DNA from: an uncultured bacterium
GTDB taxonomy: Bacteria; Vulcanimicrobiota; JAJTBE01; CAZSLZ01
Assembly: GCA_964607865.1 (NCBI GenBank)
Contig: CAZSLZ010000008.1
Span: 1 to 41,422, forward strand
Length of the DNA stretch: 41,422 nucleotides
Reading direction: 5' to 3'
Part shown: piece after piece, positions 1-8,391 of the stretch
How positions within the stretch are numbered: the first letter of the stretch is position 1
Layout: every line of letters starts with the position of its first letter
Made by a program: the position numbers and the translations under genes
Notes under the pieces: model-generated
Database searches by the model: none
What the model saw: the letters and a program-made list of their open reading frames with translations, nothing else
Told to the model about the DNA's origin: nothing

Positions 1-264
1 CACTCCGCTGCCGCCAATGGCAGCGTGGAAACCCTCCTGTATTTGCTGGATAAGGGTTTTGAAGTTGATGTAAAAAGCAGGGATGGCGTAACGCCTTTGC
101 ATAAAGCTGCGGAGCTGGGCCAGTTGGAAACGGCAGAAATTCTGATCGAGAAAGGCGCCCAGGTAAGCGCAAAAACCGATGCGGGTAAGACTCCCCTGGA
201 CTTTGCCAGAGAGGGAAACCATACCTCTATGGTGAAATTTCTGGAAGAAAAAATGAAGAAATAG
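1..264 (+). CDS. Ankyrin-repeat protein, C-terminal fragment; the gene starts upstream of the window
   Basis: Frame 1 is open from nucleotide 1. The translation HSAAANGSVETLLYLLDKGFEVDVKSRDGVTPLHKAAELGQLETAEILIEKGAQVSAKTDAGKTPLDFA has the typical ANK repeat consensus (TPLHxAAxxGhxexvxxLLxxGA). The stop is TAG at 262-264. Confidence 0.7.
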   Translation, partial: HSAAANGSVETLLYLLDKGFEVDVKSRDGVTPLHKAAELGQLETAEILIEKGAQVSAKTDAGKTPLDFAREGNHTSMVKFLEEKMKK

Positions 265-621: not shown

Positions 622-1413
622 TTATCCATTCAGGACCATTATAGCTTTGGGGTTTGTAACTCTCAAAGCCAGGCTTTCCGAGATGGTGAATTCCACCTGA
701 TCTTCGGCAGGGCCGGTGAAGCCTATGAACATATCCTGACCCAGCACTATGGAAACATACTGTTCGCCAGAAGCCAACAATACACCGCCTTTTTTAAGTA
801 CGGGGGCTTTGTAAATTCCATCGGTTACGATGGTTTTGAGATGTTCCATTTCGGTACCATGCCCCCGGGGATAACGCCGATACAACTGATTGTATCTTTC
901 CGGTGATAATGCCATGGTATAGGGGCCATGGAATCCGGCCTCATCGAGTTTGGTAACAGCATTTATTATATCGTTGGCAGCTGCTCCCACATCTTCCCAT
1001 TTCATAAGGGACACCTTATTGGCTCCCTTGATATTCAGCAGTCCGGAAGCATTCTTTTTGCCATTGAATATTATATCATCTTCACTCCGGGCGCACCAGA
1101 TTGCAGCTTCACTTACGGAGCTGGTATCCAGGGGGACGCCTTCGTGTTCGAATGCTGCCAGGTCTCTCTTATTGAGGGTAAAGTTGCGGTTAATGTATAG
1201 AACCGGAAGTACGGAAGACATGGAAATACCTTCTTCAATCTCTTCATCTTTAAGAGGAACCACTTTCAAGCCCAGTCCGTAAGGGCCCTTGACTTTCAGC
1301 AGTTTTCTGCCCACCATCTGGCTTTTTGCCGATTCTATCATAACGTTATCAATAAGATGCCAGGCTTTATTATCAAAAAAGGCATCATCACGTGTCAAAT
1401 ATTTATTTGCCAT
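622..1413 (-). CDS. Encapsulin nanocompartment shell protein (family 1, linocin M18-like)
   Basis: The translation MANKYLTRDDAFFDNKAWHLIDNVM...GRKLLKVKGPYGLGLKVVPL...ALRVTNPKAIMVLNG aligns along its whole length with T. maritima-type encapsulin (GRKFVDVEGPYGWEY...TFQVVNPEALILLKF). I chose the start at ATG 1413, which has a GGAGG RBS 8 nt upstream. The 298-aa ORF in the supplied track carries a spurious N-terminal extension that overlaps the upstream gene. Confidence 0.85.
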   Translation of the reverse strand: MANKYLTRDDAFFDNKAWHLIDNVMIESAKSQMVGRKLLKVKGPYGLGLKVVPLKDEEIEEGISMSSVLPVLYINRNFTLNKRDLAAFEHEGVPLDTSSVSEAAIWCARSEDDIIFNGKKNASGLLNIKGANKVSLMKWEDVGAAANDIINAVTKLDEAGFHGPYTMALSPERYNQLYRRYPRGHGTEMEHLKTIVTDGIYKAPVLKKGGVLLASGEQYVSIVLGQDMFIGFTGPAEDQVEFTISESLALRVTNPKAIMVLNG

Positions 1414-1415
1414 TA

Positions 1416-1766
1416 TTATTCCTCCTTCAAAGAACCGATTGAACTCTCTGATTCTATCCTGGAGGCGTTCAGTTCTTCCATCATTTCGTTTACTTCTTCT
1501 ATTCCGTTGTTCAGCCACTTATCTTCATCGCCGGTCAGGACTTGAAGCAACCTCTGGAACTCGCCCACGTGCTCTCTTTCTTCATTGGCAACATCGATGA
1601 GGACTTTTTTTGCCAGGGGGTGATCGGTGGCGTCGGCGTGGGCCATATAAAGATGAATAGCTTCCTCCTCTGCAGCCACGTTCAACCTGATTGCTCTTAC
1701 GAGCTCTTCTTTAGTCAGTTTTCTTTCCGGAACTTTGCCAGAAAATGGGTTTACAAATTCAGGCAT
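1416..1766 (-). CDS. Ferritin-like/rubrerythrin-like encapsulin cargo protein (EncFtn-type) with a C-terminal targeting peptide
   Basis: The 116-aa protein has ferritin-like motifs (EEEAIHLY...EEREHVGEF, i.e. paired E..H and ExxH). Its C-terminus SESSIGSLKEE resembles the encapsulin cargo-loading peptide consensus (..SIGSLK..). It sits immediately upstream of the shell gene, with a 2-nt gap between the stop and the shell start. An AAGGAGG RBS precedes it. Confidence 0.75.
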   Translation of the reverse strand: MPEFVNPFSGKVPERKLTKEELVRAIRLNVAAEEEAIHLYMAHADATDHPLAKKVLIDVANEEREHVGEFQRLLQVLTGDEDKWLNNGIEEVNEMMEELNASRIESESSIGSLKEE

Positions 1767-2507: not shown

Positions 2508-3095
2508 TTATTCTGTTTTGGTTTCTGATTCAGTGGTTGTTTCTTTTTCTTCCGCAGGTTTATCAGCGTGTTTTTCTTTCATAGTTTCCTTGTCGCCGGA
2601 AACTTCTTTATCCATTGTCTGATATTCTTTATCTAGTTCTTCCATTGATTTCTGGACGTTCATTTTTGCCTTTTCCCAGGCTTCGCCAGTGGATTCCTGC
2701 ATCTTTTCAAGATTGTTGCCAATCTCTTTCTGCTGTTCTTTTAGAGCATCCAACTGAGGCTGAATTTCCTTCTGGGTTTCTTCGGAAGTTTCAGCTAACT
2801 GTTTTTCCATTTTGTTAATATTTTCACCCATCTTATCCAGTTCTTTATTGGCGGCTTCATAATATTCTTCGCTTTGTGCTTCAGTATAAGCTGCCAATGC
2901 AACCAGCGCTTCGCTTGTCTGTTCCTTTACCTCTTCAGCAGTTGGGGGTTCGGTTTCTGCAGGTGGTTCCATGGGTGTTTCCTCAACAACAGGGCTTTCT
3001 GCAGGGGTTTCGGGTTTCTGTTTCTGGGCGCAGGATGCAAAAATCATCAGGGCAAAAACTAAAACCAATGCAATTATAATTTTGTGTTTTTTCAT
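2508..3095 (-). CDS. Coiled-coil lipoprotein, paralog 3 of 3
   Basis: The lipoprotein signal peptide is MKKHKIIIALVLVFALMIFASC. The acidic coiled-coil region carries the motif TGEAWEKAKMNVQKSMEELDKEYQ. An AAAGGAG RBS lies upstream. Confidence 0.55.
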   Translation of the reverse strand: MKKHKIIIALVLVFALMIFASCAQKQKPETPAESPVVEETPMEPPAETEPPTAEEVKEQTSEALVALAAYTEAQSEEYYEAANKELDKMGENINKMEKQLAETSEETQKEIQPQLDALKEQQKEIGNNLEKMQESTGEAWEKAKMNVQKSMEELDKEYQTMDKEVSGDKETMKEKHADKPAEEKETTTESETKTE

Positions 3096-3130: not shown

Positions 3131-3796
3131 TTATTTTTTTACTAATAAATCATTATTAACCAATACAACACCAGGGGTAAACATTGTAATTTCTTCAGCG
3201 ATGTTTTTCTGGTATTTTTTCAAAACTGTGCCACTCAGGGTAACTTCACCGTTATCAACAGTAATTTGAATATTTGATGTATCAATATCCCTGGCTCTGT
3301 TCAAGGAACCGGATATTTTTTGGGCTATGGTTCTGTCTTGTAATTCTCTGCTGGGAACCACGGTAAGATTGTTCTGAATGCTGTTTACACCGTAAATACC
3401 CGAAATTTTCTTCTCAATTTCAGGCACTTTCCAATAAGAATCCACAACCCCTTTTAACTGAACATTACCGCCTTCAACTGAAACTTCCAAATACCGTTCA
3501 TCGAACCGGGTATCCCACGAAAGTGAATTTTCTATATGTTTTCTTATTTTCTCATCTTCAGGAATTTTCCTACCATGTTGGTAATTTATCTTCAGTTTAT
3601 TATTAATCACCATATTGCTGTCGGCAGATTTAATAATTTCAAGCACGGTTCTGAAATCATTGAAGCTGGGGACTTCTCCCTCAAGGGTAATGCTCCCCTC
3701 CTGAATTTTCATTCGAATATCTTTTTCATCTATCCGGGGGTCTTTTTTGAGTTCTTCATAAATATTTGTTTTAAGATTTTCATCCATTACAATCAT
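3131..3796 (-). CDS. BON-domain (OsmY-like) protein with three BON repeats
   Basis: Triplicated segments have the BON signature (IxVxVxxGxVTLxGxV...). Examples are ITLEGEVPSFNDFRTVLEII, VQLKGVVDSYWKVPEIEK and VTLSGTVLKKYQKNIAEEI. Confidence 0.7.
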   Translation of the reverse strand: MIVMDENLKTNIYEELKKDPRIDEKDIRMKIQEGSITLEGEVPSFNDFRTVLEIIKSADSNMVINNKLKINYQHGRKIPEDEKIRKHIENSLSWDTRFDERYLEVSVEGGNVQLKGVVDSYWKVPEIEKKISGIYGVNSIQNNLTVVPSRELQDRTIAQKISGSLNRARDIDTSNIQITVDNGEVTLSGTVLKKYQKNIAEEITMFTPGVVLVNNDLLVKK

Positions 3797-3799
3797 GCT

Positions 3800-4288
3800 T
3801 TACACTTCCAATTCATTTTTGGCTTTCAGGGGTTCCTGTATGGTAAGAACCGGGCGGGTAGCCAGTCGAATTACCTTTTCTGCCACCGAACCGAATATGA
3901 ATCTTCCCCATCCGCTGTGGCCATGGGTTGCAATTATGATAAGATCGACATCAGCTTCATCGGCCTTTTCCACTATTTCCTTGGCGGTATCACCCTGAAC
4001 CACCACGGCGATTGTCTTGTTTTTATTGGTTACATACTTTTTTCTGACTTCATCTAGCTTTTTTTTCGCCATTTTTTTTAATTCCAGCTGATAGGAAGGC
4101 ACATCAAAGGGTGTGGGTACGGGGGCTGCCGGAGAATAAGTGGCAGGAGCAATAGGAACCACATCGGTCACGTTAAGCAGAATTAACTGGGCATCAAAAT
4201 GCACCGCCAATTCATCGGCAGCTTTGAGAGCTTCCAAAGAAGGTTCACTGAAATCGATGGGGCATAATATTTTCTTAAAAGGAACCAT
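3800..4288 (-). CDS. Universal stress protein (UspA family)
   Basis: The sequence KKILCPIDFSEPSLEALKAADELA...LIIIATHGHSGWGRFIFGSVAEKVIRLATRPVLTIQ is a canonical Usp fold, with the ATP-binding G-x2-G-x9-G(S/T) region. A GAGGT RBS lies upstream. Confidence 0.8.
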   Translation of the reverse strand: MVPFKKILCPIDFSEPSLEALKAADELAVHFDAQLILLNVTDVVPIAPATYSPAAPVPTPFDVPSYQLELKKMAKKKLDEVRKKYVTNKNKTIAVVVQGDTAKEIVEKADEADVDLIIIATHGHSGWGRFIFGSVAEKVIRLATRPVLTIQEPLKAKNELEV

Positions 4289-4308
4289 TTTCTACCTCAA
4301 ATTTAAAA

Positions 4309-4998
4309 TTAAACACTGGCTTTCACGTATTGGGGAGCTTCGATTTTCAACTCGTTGTGAACGAAAGTAACACCCTTGGTAAGCAATGCAACCTGAAAAG
4401 CCTGCTGGGCAAGGTTTTTTGAAGGTAAAATGCCAGACAGTGTTACAACTCCGTTTTCCACTTCCACATCGACCAGATCGGAATCATCGCCGATGTTTCT
4501 TGCCAGGGCTGAAGTAATGTCATTGGCAATGGCCTGGTCTATTATGTCATGGGTGGGGACCACTGCCAGGTTGTTGGTAATGCCCACTATACCTTCAATT
4601 CCTGAGGCCAGGTCTTCTATTCTTAAAACTTTCCAATACTCATCCTGGGTACCTTCAAATGTAACCCAGCCATCCTTAACCGATATCTTGACGCTCACAG
4701 AATCAATATAGGTATCCCATTCCAATATCTGCTTTATATTATTCTTCAACTCACTGTCAGTGGGAAGATTGGTTTTACCCTCGTGGGTAACCTCCAGGTT
4801 GTTTATTACCATTTCCACTCCTGAAACATCCCAGGCATCCTGAAAGGCAGAGGTGCGGGCCAGATAATTATCGACTGTCCCGTTCAATGTGACTACAAAA
4901 TCTTTTACCTTTACGTCAATATTGGTGGAATCCACCCGGTTATCCCAGAATAATTGTTCTACAATATCTTTTTTTACTCTTTCGTCGGTTATTGCCAT
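4309..4998 (-). CDS. BON-domain protein with three BON repeats
   Basis: BON repeats are VVTLNGTVDNYLARTSAF, VTFEGTQDEYWKVLRIEDLA and VVTLSGILPSKNLAQQAFQV. The start is taken at ATG 4998 (MAITDER), which has an AAGGAG 10 nt upstream. The track ORF starts 30 nt earlier and has no SD. Confidence 0.65.
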   Translation of the reverse strand: MAITDERVKKDIVEQLFWDNRVDSTNIDVKVKDFVVTLNGTVDNYLARTSAFQDAWDVSGVEMVINNLEVTHEGKTNLPTDSELKNNIKQILEWDTYIDSVSVKISVKDGWVTFEGTQDEYWKVLRIEDLASGIEGIVGITNNLAVVPTHDIIDQAIANDITSALARNIGDDSDLVDVEVENGVVTLSGILPSKNLAQQAFQVALLTKGVTFVHNELKIEAPQYVKASV

Positions 4999-5279
4999 CC
5001 AACTCACTCCTTGCAAAATAGAATTCAATATTTACAACAGCATGAAAAAATAAAAGTTTCTTTTATGATTTTACTGAATTTTCAGAACCCGGGATGTTAG
5101 TTGGTTTGTTGAGATTATTTGATGATGATGTACAGAGATGCAATTTTAGAAAAACTTTTTCCAGCTTTTAAAGAACATAAAAGTAAGCCAGTTAAAGAAG
5201 CAAAAGACAGCATTGTTGCCTTAATTTAGAAGGATATAAGCTGAAGAAAAAAATATATATTAATATGAGGGAGTATGAT

Positions 5280-6839
5280 ATGTCCCAATTGCACAGGGCC
5301 GTTCTGGATGAAGATATTGAAGAGCTGGTTCACATTCTGGATAAGAATTCCAATGTTAACCTCTTTAATGTTAATAAATTAACTCCCCTTCACCTGGCTG
5401 TTTACCGGGATAATTTAGAGGCCACCAGAATTCTGCTGGCAAAAAACGCAAATTGCAATCTTTCTGATATAGATGGATTTACCCCCCTGGCAAGGGCTGT
5501 GGAGAAAGGTCATTCGGAAACAATCAAGATGGTTTACCAGAACCGTGATGATCTGAATTTCGGAGATAAAAACAACAGAACTTTATTACATATAGCGGTG
5601 GAAAAAAACCATGCTGAAATCGCCAGGCTGCTCTCCGAGCTGATGGGAGAATTAGATATTCCCGATGGCCAGGGAATAACCCCTCTGCAGAGGGCAATAA
5701 TGAACAGCCAGGCAGAACCAGGATGGTTCCTGGTCCCCGGATGCCAATTATCTTCAGCCGACACCTGGGGCAAGATACAGGGGGGCAAGGTGCCTGTTAT
5801 CGCCTATATAGTATGGGCTCTGGCGGAATCCGGTTATACCGGGCCTTCCCTCAACAAGGGAATTGGCTATATCAAAAAAAATATCGGCCAGTTTGAAGAC
5901 CCCTACGTTCTGGCTCTGGTTACCAACGCTCTGGCAACCATGGAACCTGAAAACCAGTTAACAAGAGAATTATTGGAAAAACTGAAGTCCAAGGCTGAAT
6001 TTACCAAAGACTCGGCATACTGGACACCTGGAGTGGCGACTGCAACTTATAGCACGGGCAGCAGCGCCAATATGGAAACCACTGCCATGGCAGCTTTGGC
6101 ATTCATGAAAGTAGAGGGTTATGAAGAGCTGGCAAACAAAGCTGTGAGTTATTTAGTTCAGAGCAAGGATTCCTTTGGGACCTGGTATTCAACCAAGAGT
6201 ACGGTTCTGGCGATGAAAGCTCTGTTAACTGCCCAGGAAAAAGCTGGTAAAAGTGTGGATGCCAGGGTAGAAATCATGGTTAACGGCGAAGCCAGCGAAA
6301 CATTCCAGATTGATTCAGAAAATTATGAACTTTTCCGCCAGGCTGATTTCAGCCATATAACCAGGCAGGGTTCCAATACTGTTGAAGGCAAGGGCGCCTG
6401 TTTCTACCAGGTAACCGCCCGGCATTATATACCCTGGAAACTGGCGAAACAGAATAAACATCTGGCAATTGAGGTAAAATACGACAGGACCCAGTTAAAA
6501 ACTGATGATCTCCTGACTTCTACTGTGACTGTAAAAAACAATACAAAAGCAGCCATGAAAATGGTAATGGTGGACCTGGGAATTCCTCCGGGATTTACCG
6601 TAATGACCCCTGACCAGGGTGAGTATGTGGGCGGAAAATTCCAGAAATACAATATGACTTCAAGGCAAATGATAATTTATGTTGATACCCTGAAAGCCGG
6701 CGAGGATTTAAAATTCAAGTACCGGCTGAAAGCCAGGTACCCCTTGCGGGCTAAGACTCCGGAAAGCAAAGCTTACCAGTATTACAACCCTGGCGTGGAA
6801 GACAAAGCCCAGCCAGTGACCCTGGATGTGAAGGAATAA
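5280..6839 (+). CDS. Fusion of N-terminal ankyrin repeats to an alpha-2-macroglobulin-like C-terminal half (TED + MG8 + receptor-binding-like domains); no signal peptide and no CxEQ thioester
   Basis: The N-terminus carries three or four ANK repeats (TPLHLAVYRDNLEATRILLAKNA, TPLARAVEKGHSETI, TLLHIAVEKNHAEIARLL). The central region matches the A2M/C3d thioester-domain toroid: YIVWALAESG, METTAMAALAFMKV and FGTWYSTKSTVLAMKALLTAQEKA (compare C3 [21 protein letters not shown]). The C-terminal end is GKGACFYQVTARHYIP...GFTVMTPDQGEYVGGKFQKYNMTSRQMIIYV, like A2M MG8/RBD. The thioester position reads VPGCQLSS, not GCGEQ. The start is ATG 5280, with a GAGGGAG 5 nt upstream. Confidence 0.65.
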   Translation: MSQLHRAVLDEDIEELVHILDKNSNVNLFNVNKLTPLHLAVYRDNLEATRILLAKNANCNLSDIDGFTPLARAVEKGHSETIKMVYQNRDDLNFGDKNNRTLLHIAVEKNHAEIARLLSELMGELDIPDGQGITPLQRAIMNSQAEPGWFLVPGCQLSSADTWGKIQGGKVPVIAYIVWALAESGYTGPSLNKGIGYIKKNIGQFEDPYVLALVTNALATMEPENQLTRELLEKLKSKAEFTKDSAYWTPGVATATYSTGSSANMETTAMAALAFMKVEGYEELANKAVSYLVQSKDSFGTWYSTKSTVLAMKALLTAQEKAGKSVDARVEIMVNGEASETFQIDSENYELFRQADFSHITRQGSNTVEGKGACFYQVTARHYIPWKLAKQNKHLAIEVKYDRTQLKTDDLLTSTVTVKNNTKAAMKMVMVDLGIPPGFTVMTPDQGEYVGGKFQKYNMTSRQMIIYVDTLKAGEDLKFKYRLKARYPLRAKTPESKAYQYYNPGVEDKAQPVTLDVKE

Positions 6840-6862
6840 ACCGGAAATTAATTTGAAACAGA

Positions 6863-6897
6863 AGAACTGATTAGCTCCAATCAGTTCTCTTTTTTAT
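6863..6897 (+). terminator. Rho-independent terminator gaactgatt-agctcc-aatcagttc followed by TCTTTTTTAT
   Basis: A 9-bp perfect stem with a T-run lies 24 nt after the stop of the Ank-A2M gene. Confidence 0.7.
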
Positions 6898-6902
6898 ATA
6901 AC

Positions 6903-7030
6903 TTTGGTAAATGGGTTGGAAACCAACCCGATCCAAATTAAGATTGCCGCGGTTTCTGCCGTTTGCCTTCGTCATCACGAGCATCCGTAAGGATGCGTGG
7001 TGATCTCTGTATCGCTCAGGTAAATGGTTT
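6903..7030 (-). repeat. Mosaic structured intergenic repeat, copy 2 (minus-strand orientation, with the modules rearranged to B then A)
   Basis: The reverse complement reads ccatttacctgagcgatacagagatcaccacgcatccttacggatgctcgtgatgacgaaggcaaacggcagaaaccgcggcaatcttaatttggatcgggttggtttccaacccatttacc. It matches modules A and B of copy 1, but with module A placed 3' of B. A ccatttacc string occurs at both ends. Confidence 0.6.
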
Positions 7031-7116
7031 TTAACCAATCTGCTGCAAACTAAAACTGTTATAATCAGTTGTTAAAAAATGGTTTAAAACTGTTTACAAC
7101 GAATTTATAGACTAAG

Positions 7117-8391
7117 ATGAAGATAACAGAAAAAATAGGGGAACCTTTTAAAAAGCTTTTTGCAATGCCCTGGCTGGCAAAAATGGTTTTGTTCTTATCT
7201 ATTATGGGGCCGGGGCTTATCACGGCCAATGTAGATAACGATGCCAACGGCATCGCCACCTATTCGGTGGCGGGGGCAAGTTTTGGCTATTCTATGATAT
7301 GGGTTCTATTCGTGGTGGTTTTTTTTCAGGGCCTGGTTCAGGAAATGACTGCCCGGCTGGGATGCATTACCGGCAAGGGCTTGTCGGACCTGATCAGAGA
7401 AAACTTCGGGGTAAAGGTTACTGTTTACCTCATGTTTATCCTTTTTCTGGCAAATTTTGCCAACGTTATAGGCAATTTTGCAGGTATCGCCGCCGGTGCT
7501 GAATTGTTTAATATTCCCCGTTTTGTGTCAATTCCACTGGGGGCTTTGTTTGTATGGTTCCTTGTGGTAAAAGGATCCTATGAACGAACTGAAAAAATTT
7601 TTCTGTGGGCATGCCTTATCTACCTCACCTACATCGCATCGGGCCTTATGGCGAAACCCGACTGGGGAAAAATCGCAGATTCCACTATTCATCCCCAGGT
7701 AAGTTTTGACAGAAACTACATCTATATGGTAATCGCCATAGTGGGAAGCACCATCGCCCCCTGGATGCAATTTTTTCAGCAGTCCGCCATTAGAGATAAA
7801 CAGGTGGATGAAAAGAATTATGTTTATGTAAGATGGGATACATATATCGGTACCATCGCCATGGCTATAGTCAGTTTTTTTATTATAGTAGCCTGCGCCG
7901 CCACCCTCCACGTTCAGGGAATCAAGATTGAAAGCGCCGAACAGGCCGCTCTGGCGCTTGCCCCACTGGCAGGCAAATATGCCAGTATCCTCTTCGGGGT
8001 GGGGCTTCTTAACGCAGCAATTTTTTCCACAGCTATCATTCCCATTTCCACCTCCTACGCCATCTGCGAATCATTTGGCTGGGAATCAGGAATGGGAAAA
8101 AGCTTCAAGGAAGCTCCGGTTTTTCTGGGTATCTATACCTTCATGATTGTGGCAGGCTCTTTTATTCTTATGATACCGGGAATACCCCTTATTCCCATTA
8201 TGGTTCTTTCCCAGGCGTTAAATGGAATTCTGCTGCCATTCATTCTTATTATTATTATGAAACTGATTAACGATAAAAGGCTGATGGGCAAATGGACCAA
8301 CTCGCTGGTTTTTAATATTCTTGCCTGGATCACCACTATCGTTATTTCTATTCTTTCCGTCATCCTCATTGTTATGACTTTTCAGGCATAA
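7117..8391 (+). CDS. Nramp-family divalent cation transporter, probably of the NRMT (Mg2+-selective) type
   Basis: There are eleven or twelve TMs. The TM1 motif GPGLITANVDNDANGIATYSVAGASFGY aligns with E. coli MntH [28 protein letters not shown], except that DPGN is replaced by DANG. The TM6 sequence AIVGSTIAPW replaces the GATVMPH motif, so the conserved Met is an Ala. Confidence 0.75.
   Translation: MKITEKIGEPFKKLFAMPWLAKMVLFLSIMGPGLITANVDNDANGIATYSVAGASFGYSMIWVLFVVVFFQGLVQEMTARLGCITGKGLSDLIRENFGVKVTVYLMFILFLANFANVIGNFAGIAAGAELFNIPRFVSIPLGALFVWFLVVKGSYERTEKIFLWACLIYLTYIASGLMAKPDWGKIADSTIHPQVSFDRNYIYMVIAIVGSTIAPWMQFFQQSAIRDKQVDEKNYVYVRWDTYIGTIAMAIVSFFIIVACAATLHVQGIKIESAEQAALALAPLAGKYASILFGVGLLNAAIFSTAIIPISTSYAICESFGWESGMGKSFKEAPVFLGIYTFMIVAGSFILMIPGIPLIPIMVLSQALNGILLPFILIIIMKLINDKRLMGKWTNSLVFNILAWITTIVISILSVILIVMTFQA

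Follow-up and report, generated by a model that had tools for sequence, protein, structure and literature searches.

A Recent Chimeric Gene Joining Ankyrin Repeats to the C-Terminal Part of an Alpha-2-Macroglobulin in an Uncultured Bacterium

The window analysed here is a 41.4-kb contig (CAZSLZ010000008.1, 41,422 nucleotides) from a metagenome-assembled genome (MAG) labelled Vulcanimicrobiota by NCBI. It contains an open reading frame (ORF) in which ankyrin (Ank) repeats run into the C-terminal part of a bacterial alpha-2-macroglobulin (A2M). This gene is a chimera of recent origin. Its two halves meet at a scar of A2M-coding DNA translated in the wrong frame, most of the A2M parent is missing, no second example of the architecture appears among the best matches of two large protein searches, and the same gene is present in two assemblies. 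The ORF is best explained, with a probability of about 0.65, as a young chimeric gene or gene remnant left by a rearrangement accident, and not as a new kind of cytoplasmic macroglobulin. The A2M tail would be a passenger or remnant without a selected function of its own, and the protein would at most serve as a binding module of the ankyrin type whose tail is partly unfoldable.

The Junction and Its Age

At the junction of the two halves, 18 codons of DNA from the A2M thioester domain (TED) are translated out of frame. The ancestral frame of this scar (5707-5757, 51 nt) is the +1 frame, in which it encodes the conserved TED motif ARQNQDGSWSPDANYLQ; the counterpart in P0002, a relative of the A2M part, is ARQQGQDGSWSPDANYLHQ. 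Three-frame translation of 5698-5757 gives, in frame +1, two stops followed by 'TARQNQDGSWSPDANYLQ', a peptide nearly identical to 'LARQQGQDGSWSPDANYLHQ' of P0002 and to 'ASQQNQDGSWTPDKNYCH' of P0128, the best full-length relative. What the scar encodes is the conserved QxxDGSW hairpin, found 95-114 residues past the thioester, translated in the wrong frame. A sequence-only reading of the window had taken 'PGCQLSS' for the thioester position. These letters are a product of the out-of-frame TED DNA, and the true site, ~114 residues further upstream, has been deleted.

DNA alignments to two independent reference genes, L005 and L022, place the beginning of nucleotide homology at ~5707, with ~85% identity to the reference A2M genes over the stretch that follows. 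Against both references the window shows a single-base gap at ~5757-5759. After this 1-nt deletion the A2M frame coincides with the Ank frame of the ORF ('TWGKIQGGKVPVIAYIVWALAESGY…'). Putting the one base back would end the Ank ORF at 205 aa, the last 60 of them a junk tail. Ancestral coding DNA that lies out of frame at the junction, together with an indel, marks the gene as chimeric.

The change of frame is recent. Substitutions could be counted in the 13 scar codons comparable with L005. Read in the ancestral frame, the differences are 5 synonymous to 1 non-synonymous; read in the frame that is translated at present, they are 1 synonymous to 4 non-synonymous. On this pattern, purifying selection acted on the scar in the other frame through nearly all of its history. 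It is also more similar to L005 (33/39 nt, 85%) than is the in-frame DNA just downstream (72%), and the two observations together point to a recent event. Where the disruption is recent, the 360 open codons downstream and the conservation of their residues lose force as arguments for function.

The Gene and Its Product

The frame is open without interruption from 5265 to 6839 (+), and the maximal ORF, from an ATG at 5265, encodes 524 aa. Residue numbers refer to this ORF unless stated otherwise; subtracting 5 converts them to the 519-aa protein. ATG 5280 is the likely start, because GAGGGAG lies 6 nt upstream of it and the same start is used for the NCBI protein P0001 (519 aa), which has the product name 'ankyrin repeat domain-containing protein'. 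Shuffled sequence gives promoter-like matches at least as often as the DNA 5' of the gene. The 519-aa protein has an acidic N-terminus and neither a signal peptide nor a transmembrane segment (its 19-aa Kyte-Doolittle hydropathy reaches 1.2 at most), and just upstream the ORF is closed off by in-frame stops. The product is predicted by sequence to be cytoplasmic, and the earlier impression of a cytoplasmic protein without a signal peptide holds.

The A2M-Derived Part

Pfam places TED_complement (PF07678) at residues 141-320 with E 2.8e-21, covering only profile positions 119-309 of 312, and A2M_recep (PF07677) at residues 432-510 with E 6e-9; bMG10 (PF17973) gives a match below threshold (E 1e-4). 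The C-terminal 390 residues are colinear, by sequence, with the extreme C-termini of A2ML1, of frog and human A2M and of TEP1 in the PDB. Both the profiles and this colinearity uphold what had been said of the domain content, namely Ank repeats followed by a C-terminal A2M part from which the thioester is absent. No match to the Pfam families MG2, MG3, A2M_BRD and A2M is seen in the protein at E<=1, and a tblastn search with full-length relatives gave no other A2M or macroglobulin (MG) remnants in the window.

The extent of the loss can be read with P0128 as a ruler. Its thioester Cys is residue 1076, and in-frame homology to the chimera begins 114 residues later, at residue 1190. From a P0128-like parent 1,189 residues (77%) are missing. 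About 163 of the ~286 TED residues (57%) are retained in frame, and the first ~43% of the domain is gone. In A2Ms the N-terminal half of the CUB domain precedes the TED and the C-terminal half comes after it. From this domain order the N-terminal half was probably lost together with the upstream part of the parent, and the strand segment that follows the TED in the chimera would be the C-terminal half. The sequence-only reading had seen a TED toroid with an MG8/receptor-binding domain (RBD). The RBD is indeed complete and the TED is of A2M type; what did not stand is the wholeness of the rest, with only 57% of the TED present and the CUB halved.

The toroid could have belonged to another family of similar fold. 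A terpene-cyclase identity was considered and rejected on the TED_complement score and on fold matches that are all of A2M/C3 type. The prenyltransferase and terpene-cyclase families (PF13243/PF13249/PF00432) have no Pfam match to the protein at E<=1, and when an AlphaFold model was compared with the PDB by Foldseek, the best 50 matches were all A2M/C3/C5/CD109/TEP. The assignment to the A2M superfamily made from the sequence is confirmed in this respect. Without bait region, MG cage, thioester or export, the predicted product cannot be a protease trap, a point on which the earlier description was also right.

AlphaFold was run twice on the chimeric protein. In both runs the Ank half was poorly modelled, with mis-registered rows in the multiple sequence alignment (MSA). 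Confidence is high for residues ~170-524, and the predicted local distance difference test score (pLDDT) is ~90-98 in the TED part. The junction has pLDDT <50 in both models and is modelled as disordered. No confident packing of the Ank repeats against the TED was predicted (predicted template modelling score 0.49 in the run with the cleaner MSA).

The Ankyrin Half

Over residues ~9-150 Pfam finds Ank_2 (E 6e-24) as well as Ank_4, Ank_5, Ank and Ank_3, and all of these exceed their gathering scores. TPLH-type motifs recur 33 aa apart, at 3, 35, 68, 101 and 134 in the 519-aa numbering. The PDB matches of the N-terminal half are DARPin and ankyrin structures. With tandem 33-residue repeats recognised both by the profiles and by their periodicity, the chimera is by sequence a bona fide Ank-repeat protein.

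The parental Ank gene was not found; the best database relative of the Ank half is 39% identical. The window has a second ankyrin-repeat gene, the 3' end of which (…GVTPLHKAAELGQLETAEILIEKGAQV…KMKK*) is at 1-264 (+), as the sequence-only reading had noted. This gene was ruled out as the parent, its similarity to the Ank half being only generic (~31%). In a related MAG, L007 517-2340 (-) encodes a 607-aa Ser/Thr protein kinase that carries an Ank domain and has zinc-ribbon-like Cys motifs at its N-terminus. The Ank domain of this kinase is 31% identical to the Ank half of the chimera, again a generic similarity. Together with the two Ank genes of the window, the kinase suggests that finding Ank domains in these MAGs is nothing out of the ordinary.

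Ankyrin proteins can bring to mind effectors. NCBIfam models for Legionella and Coxiella Ank effectors match the chimera weakly, at 45-52 bits and over the Ank repeats only, and in animals the RBD of A2M binds LRP1. From these two facts one could picture a Dot/Icm-like Ank effector, exported by a non-Sec route into a eukaryotic host where its RBD engages a host receptor. This is highly improbable. With model cut-offs of 600 bits, a score of 45-52 bits is taken as similarity of a generic Ank kind. The scanned neighbours in the window included no secretion-system genes, and the scar and the truncation count equally against an effector.

Relatives and the Search for Other Fusions

When 1.84 billion cluster representatives were scanned exhaustively with HMMER, the matches fell into two disjoint classes. 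The first consists of giant Ank proteins, which cover only residues 1-165 of the query. The second consists of full-length A2Ms of ~1,500-1,900 aa, which cover only ~130-519 in one C-terminal stretch. The relatives of the A2M-derived part are all pieces or C-termini of such full-length A2Ms. P0128 (1,553 aa) is 60% identical to the chimera over its residues 1190-1552. It has a lipoprotein signal with a lipobox, MKTIKTLLILMVVSCLLFLVVSNGC ('…LFLVVSNGC'), the thioester 'MPYGCFEQ' and the Pfam content MG2/MG3/A2M_BRD/A2M/TED/A2M_recep, and it belongs to type I of the bacterial A2Ms as PMC5764988 uses the term. Among the word-indexed matches none is closer to the A2M part than P0002 (54% identity). 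On its 1.3-kb contig ordinary TED sequence continues upstream, with no fusion.

A survey for the Ank-A2M architecture in other genomes had been proposed from the sequence-only reading. No further protein combined Ank and A2M, either among the candidates drawn from 5.8 billion proteins or among the best 150 matches of the 1.84-billion-representative scan, and a search of the GTDB species genomes with the whole protein gave no relatives. As for the parents as separate genes elsewhere, the A2M parent type is represented (P0128, P0002) and the Ank parent is not. The architecture is without precedent; the kind of object, a rearrangement-born chimeric ORF or gene remnant, is known.

Database entries of ~400-480 aa with TED and RBD might suggest a stand-alone short family. 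This was rejected, the entries being fragments of full-length A2M genes. On long contigs the 400-480-aa TED+A2M_recep entries are preceded by ORFs with MG domains, and such short entries arise by splitting at contig ends, at frameshifts or at in-frame TGA. At L002 4595-9221 and L004 4159-9233, on long contigs, full-length A2M genes appear broken up into 3-4 consecutive ORFs (MG2/MG3, then A2M, then TED+RBD). These split genes may be either true pseudogenes or the result of indel errors in long-read assembly, and they inflate databases with 'short TED-RBD proteins'.

Authenticity of the Join

The evidence for the chimera comes from MAG assemblies only, and the join could in principle be an artefact, either a chimeric contig or a 1-nt deletion that is an error. 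Restoring one base ends the Ank ORF after 205 aa, so that if the deletion were an error, the locus would consist of a ~205-aa Ank gene and, after it, an A2M pseudogene fragment that lacks its 5' part and a promoter. The 3.9-kb contig L001 of a second, separately deposited assembly (GCA_046542775.1, JBKHAS010000298.1) covers 3650-7575 of the window. Two single-nucleotide polymorphisms, at 3697 and 4435, set it apart from the window; neither falls within the gene, and the fusion and the deletion are the same in both. The breakpoint has no repeat to mislead an assembler, and the window is otherwise rich in long intact ORFs, which argues against an indel-prone assembly. With the same junction in two assemblies, no breakpoint repeat and long intact ORFs, an artefact is quite improbable. 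Even then the A2M part would be a truncated remnant beside an Ank gene.

Origin and Possible Function

A rearrangement, most simply a deletion, would have joined the 5' ~425 nt of an Ank gene to the last ~1.13 kb of an A2M gene. The parent A2M would have been of the lipoprotein type, thioester-containing and roughly 1,550 aa long. Among the ~1,190 parental codons that are gone are those for the signal peptide and lipobox, all MG domains and the bait region, and also for one half of the CUB (the N-terminal one), for the GCxEQ thioester and for the initial ~43% of the TED. The Ank part would supply its own ribosome-binding site and no export signal, and the A2M part its own terminator. The 1-nt deletion puts the A2M sequence in register, and what is left of the TED and of the CUB can be translated together with the receptor-binding domain. 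The sequence-only reading had allowed for an upstream frameshift that conceals a longer, exported A2M. The scar does derive from a lipobox-bearing A2M, but the upstream part has been deleted, not merely frameshifted.

Two orders of events can be imagined. In a neutral order a frameshift would inactivate the A2M gene first, and a deletion would next remove the upstream part, by chance joining the Ank frame to the downstream frame. Such a chimera would be noticed because only joins close to the frameshift yield a long ORF. In the alternative order the join would come first and the frame-restoring deletion second, and this would hint at selection for read-through. No Ank gene is found next to the full-length A2M at the P0128 locus, so the deletion of DNA between adjacent genes is a model that this locus does not support.

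Three observations weigh against an accidental remnant. The frame-restoring 1-nt deletion is only 51 nt past the join and can be read as compensatory and selected. Of the strongly conserved A2M family positions, 66/76 (87%) are kept, and all 10 deviations are conservative replacements; the family median is 92%, and the chimera stands at about the 22nd percentile. The Shine-Dalgarno (SD) sequence is intact, a terminator-like hairpin is present, and the gene is identical in two sampled populations. The same features would suit a functional neo-fusion, in which the Ank repeats target a cytoplasmic partner and the half-TED, half-CUB and RBD have been co-opted as a scaffold or chaperone-like module. 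The main argument for it is the second order of events, with its hint of selection for read-through. It also draws on the long ORF that is maintained, with a frame-restoring deletion right after the join, and on a complete RBD/MG8 and seven TED helices that are confidently modelled.

Such a neo-fusion is nevertheless rather unlikely. The architecture is a singleton, absent from the best matches of both large protein searches. Structural units are broken in both partners: the fifth Ank repeat keeps only its first helix, the TED is cut after ~43% and the CUB in half. A join that ignores domain boundaries leaves an open toroid and half a beta-sandwich. The linker consists of 18 out-of-frame residues, and no Ank-TED interface is predicted. 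The scar substitutions make the event too recent for an intact ORF or for residue conservation to count. The proposal, made from the sequence, that an intact TED toroid had been put to a new purpose as a scaffold or chaperone is not supported, with the TED roughly halved, the CUB halved, a scar between the parts and no second lineage. The compensatory deletion, the conserved residues and the SD and terminator are compatible both with a recent, neutral origin and with a selected one, and none of them distinguishes the two.

It is also unlikely that the chimera is expressed as a newborn gene whose Ank repeats dock a cytoplasmic target while the MG8/RBD and the half-toroid offer a second binding surface. 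If this were true, the gene would be a first case in bacteria of A2M-superfamily domains at work inside the cell, seen just as it arose, and the frame-restoring deletion would be the selected step. As a product of rearrangement, the chimera reveals no new A2M mechanism. It does provide a clean, datable case of the birth of a bacterial chimeric ORF in which the parents, the breakpoint, the scar and the compensating indel can all be read. It also warns that a domain architecture in a MAG which looks strikingly new may be rearrangement debris.

Candidate Selenocysteine A2Ms

Many A2M genes of the subfamily to which the A2M part belongs, all outside the window, have an in-frame TGA exactly in place of the thioester Cys codon, and for this reason their short database homologues begin just past that site. 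The first long-contig loci checked all (4/4) read '…LRMPFG*FEQSTSVTYP…' at this site, the asterisk being the TGA. Gene callers split these TGA-type A2Ms into one ORF of ~1,200-1,550 aa and one of ~470 aa. In a set of 76 homologues, ~32 start <=20 aa after the thioester site and 28 have an intact GCFEQ. An invariant hairpin, ACGTC-GGT-GACGT, begins 12 nt after the TGA; it is usually 2 bp longer, and one compensatory variant occurs. The Cys-type P0128 (GCFEQ), which serves as a control, has no such hairpin. We take this 17-nt stem-loop, located ~10-11 nt after the UGA and with a GGU loop, to match the minimal selenocysteine insertion sequence (SECIS) of E. coli fdhF. A metagenome-wide scan with a strict pattern gave 69 stretches (L023-L091), 67/69 of which have the exact A2M context with the frames open on both sides of the TGA. 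Rfam gave no SECIS-family or convincing match on the TGA loci, only two chance-level matches elsewhere in them.

The TGA-type relatives are candidates for selenocysteine ('selenoester') A2Ms. Within the literature searched such proteins are apparently undescribed. Macroglobulins and thioesters are unmentioned in a 2026 review of the prokaryotic selenoproteome and in the deep-Sep paper with its supplements, and further full-text literature searching gave nothing relevant on selenocysteine A2Ms. If selenocysteine is inserted, a selenoester would replace the thioester, which would be unreported chemistry for the superfamily and an unreported selenoprotein family. For the field these candidates matter more than the chimera itself.

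Two of the loci have a further feature. At L003 3462-7868 and L021 1085-5964 the A2M-like protein has an N-terminal zf-HC2 anti-sigma domain, and its gene is directly downstream of one for an ECF (extracytoplasmic function) sigma-70 factor. This suggests that, in at least two loci, the A2M cage is the extracytoplasmic part of an anti-sigma factor, possibly one that senses proteases.

Locus Context

The genes upstream of the chimera are divergently transcribed and include encapsulin, BON, Usp and BON genes; those downstream are Nramp and CN-hydrolase. These neighbours are unrelated genes. The encapsulin shell protein gene, at 622-1518 (-), matches Linocin_M18 with E 7e-73, and a 195-aa ORF next to it (2508-3095) has no Pfam match. 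Synteny was followed through Nramp: the two closest loci, L006 and L007 (74-76% Nramp identity), carry unrelated genes upstream and give no information on the ancestral state of the site. The 277-nt leader upstream of the Nramp gene contains a GC-rich inverted repeat (…catcacgagcatccgtaaggatgcgtggtgat…) at 6940-7015 (+). It may be a regulatory element, so far uncharacterised, for the metal transporter; Rfam gave nothing at gathering score over the window, the repeat included. The features of the chimeric gene, with the TGA codons of the related loci, are collected in Table 1.

Table 1. Coordinates of the chimeric gene's features in the window and of in-frame TGA codons in related A2M loci.
Feature	Coordinates	Strand	Remarks
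Shine-Dalgarno-like GAGGGAG	5267..5273	+	6 nt 5' of ATG 5280; read from sequence
Chimeric ORF	5280..6839	+	519 aa plus stop; NCBI protein P0001 agrees
Ankyrin-derived segment	5280..5705	+	four complete 33-aa repeats and a fifth ending after helix 1 (…GITPLQRAIMN)
Junction scar	5706..5759	+	TED-coding DNA in wrong frame; S148-A165 (524-aa ORF), 'SQAEPGWFLVPGCQLSSA'
C-terminal ~57% of A2M thioester domain, seven long alpha/alpha toroid helices	5760..6245	+	thioester region absent; Pfam, P0128 alignment
Beta-strand segment, probable C-terminal half of CUB by position	6246..6455	+	colinear with A2ML1/A2M; strands E333-E388 (model 1)
Complete receptor-binding / MG8 (bacterial MG10) domain	6456..6836	+	Pfam A2M_recep, bMG10; pLDDT 88-98
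Terminator-like hairpin, 10-bp stem then T-run	6863..6897	+	24 nt after stop codon; consensus scan only
In-frame TGA at thioester Cys (G-*-F-E-Q)	L003 7866-7868		
In-frame TGA at thioester Cys (G-*-F-E-Q)	L019 5980-5982		
In-frame TGA at thioester Cys (G-*-F-E-Q)	L020 5980-5982		
In-frame TGA at thioester Cys (G-*-F-E-Q)	L021 5962-5964		

Comparison with Known Systems

Among the nearest known proteins are the type I bacterial A2Ms, periplasmic thioester lipoproteins that include E. coli ECAM/YfhM and Salmonella SaA2M. The last ~360 residues of the chimera are homologous to and colinear with their C-termini, and the shared region takes in the later part of the TED, the CUB's C-terminal half and the RBD/MG10, with P0128 as the nearest full-length protein (60%). 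The C-terminal receptor-binding domain of type I A2Ms, MG8 (MG10), is present in the chimera. Unlike these proteins the chimera has no lipobox, MG domains, bait region, CxEQ or beginning of the TED (77% of the protein), and it is by prediction cytoplasmic and has Ank repeats.

Type II bacterial A2Ms (YfaS; Pseudomonas MagD; PMC5764988) share with the chimera the lack of a reactive thioester. They are full-length, exported, multi-MG cages with a complete TED-like domain, and the chimera is none of these. In the chimera the thioester has been lost by deletion of the region and not by substitution.

As in other bacterial ankyrin proteins, the chimera has four canonical 33-aa repeats with TPLH-type motifs. 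In contrast to them, its repeat array is broken in the fifth repeat by foreign DNA.

The chimera also resembles fusion pseudogenes and young chimeric genes created by deletion or rearrangement. In these, too, two unrelated parents are joined, the breakpoint falls within structural units and the junction is out of frame, and they are likewise restricted to one lineage and of recent origin. In contrast to fusion pseudogenes, the ORF of the chimera is fully open and has expression signals, and it could be a proto-gene and not a dead remnant.

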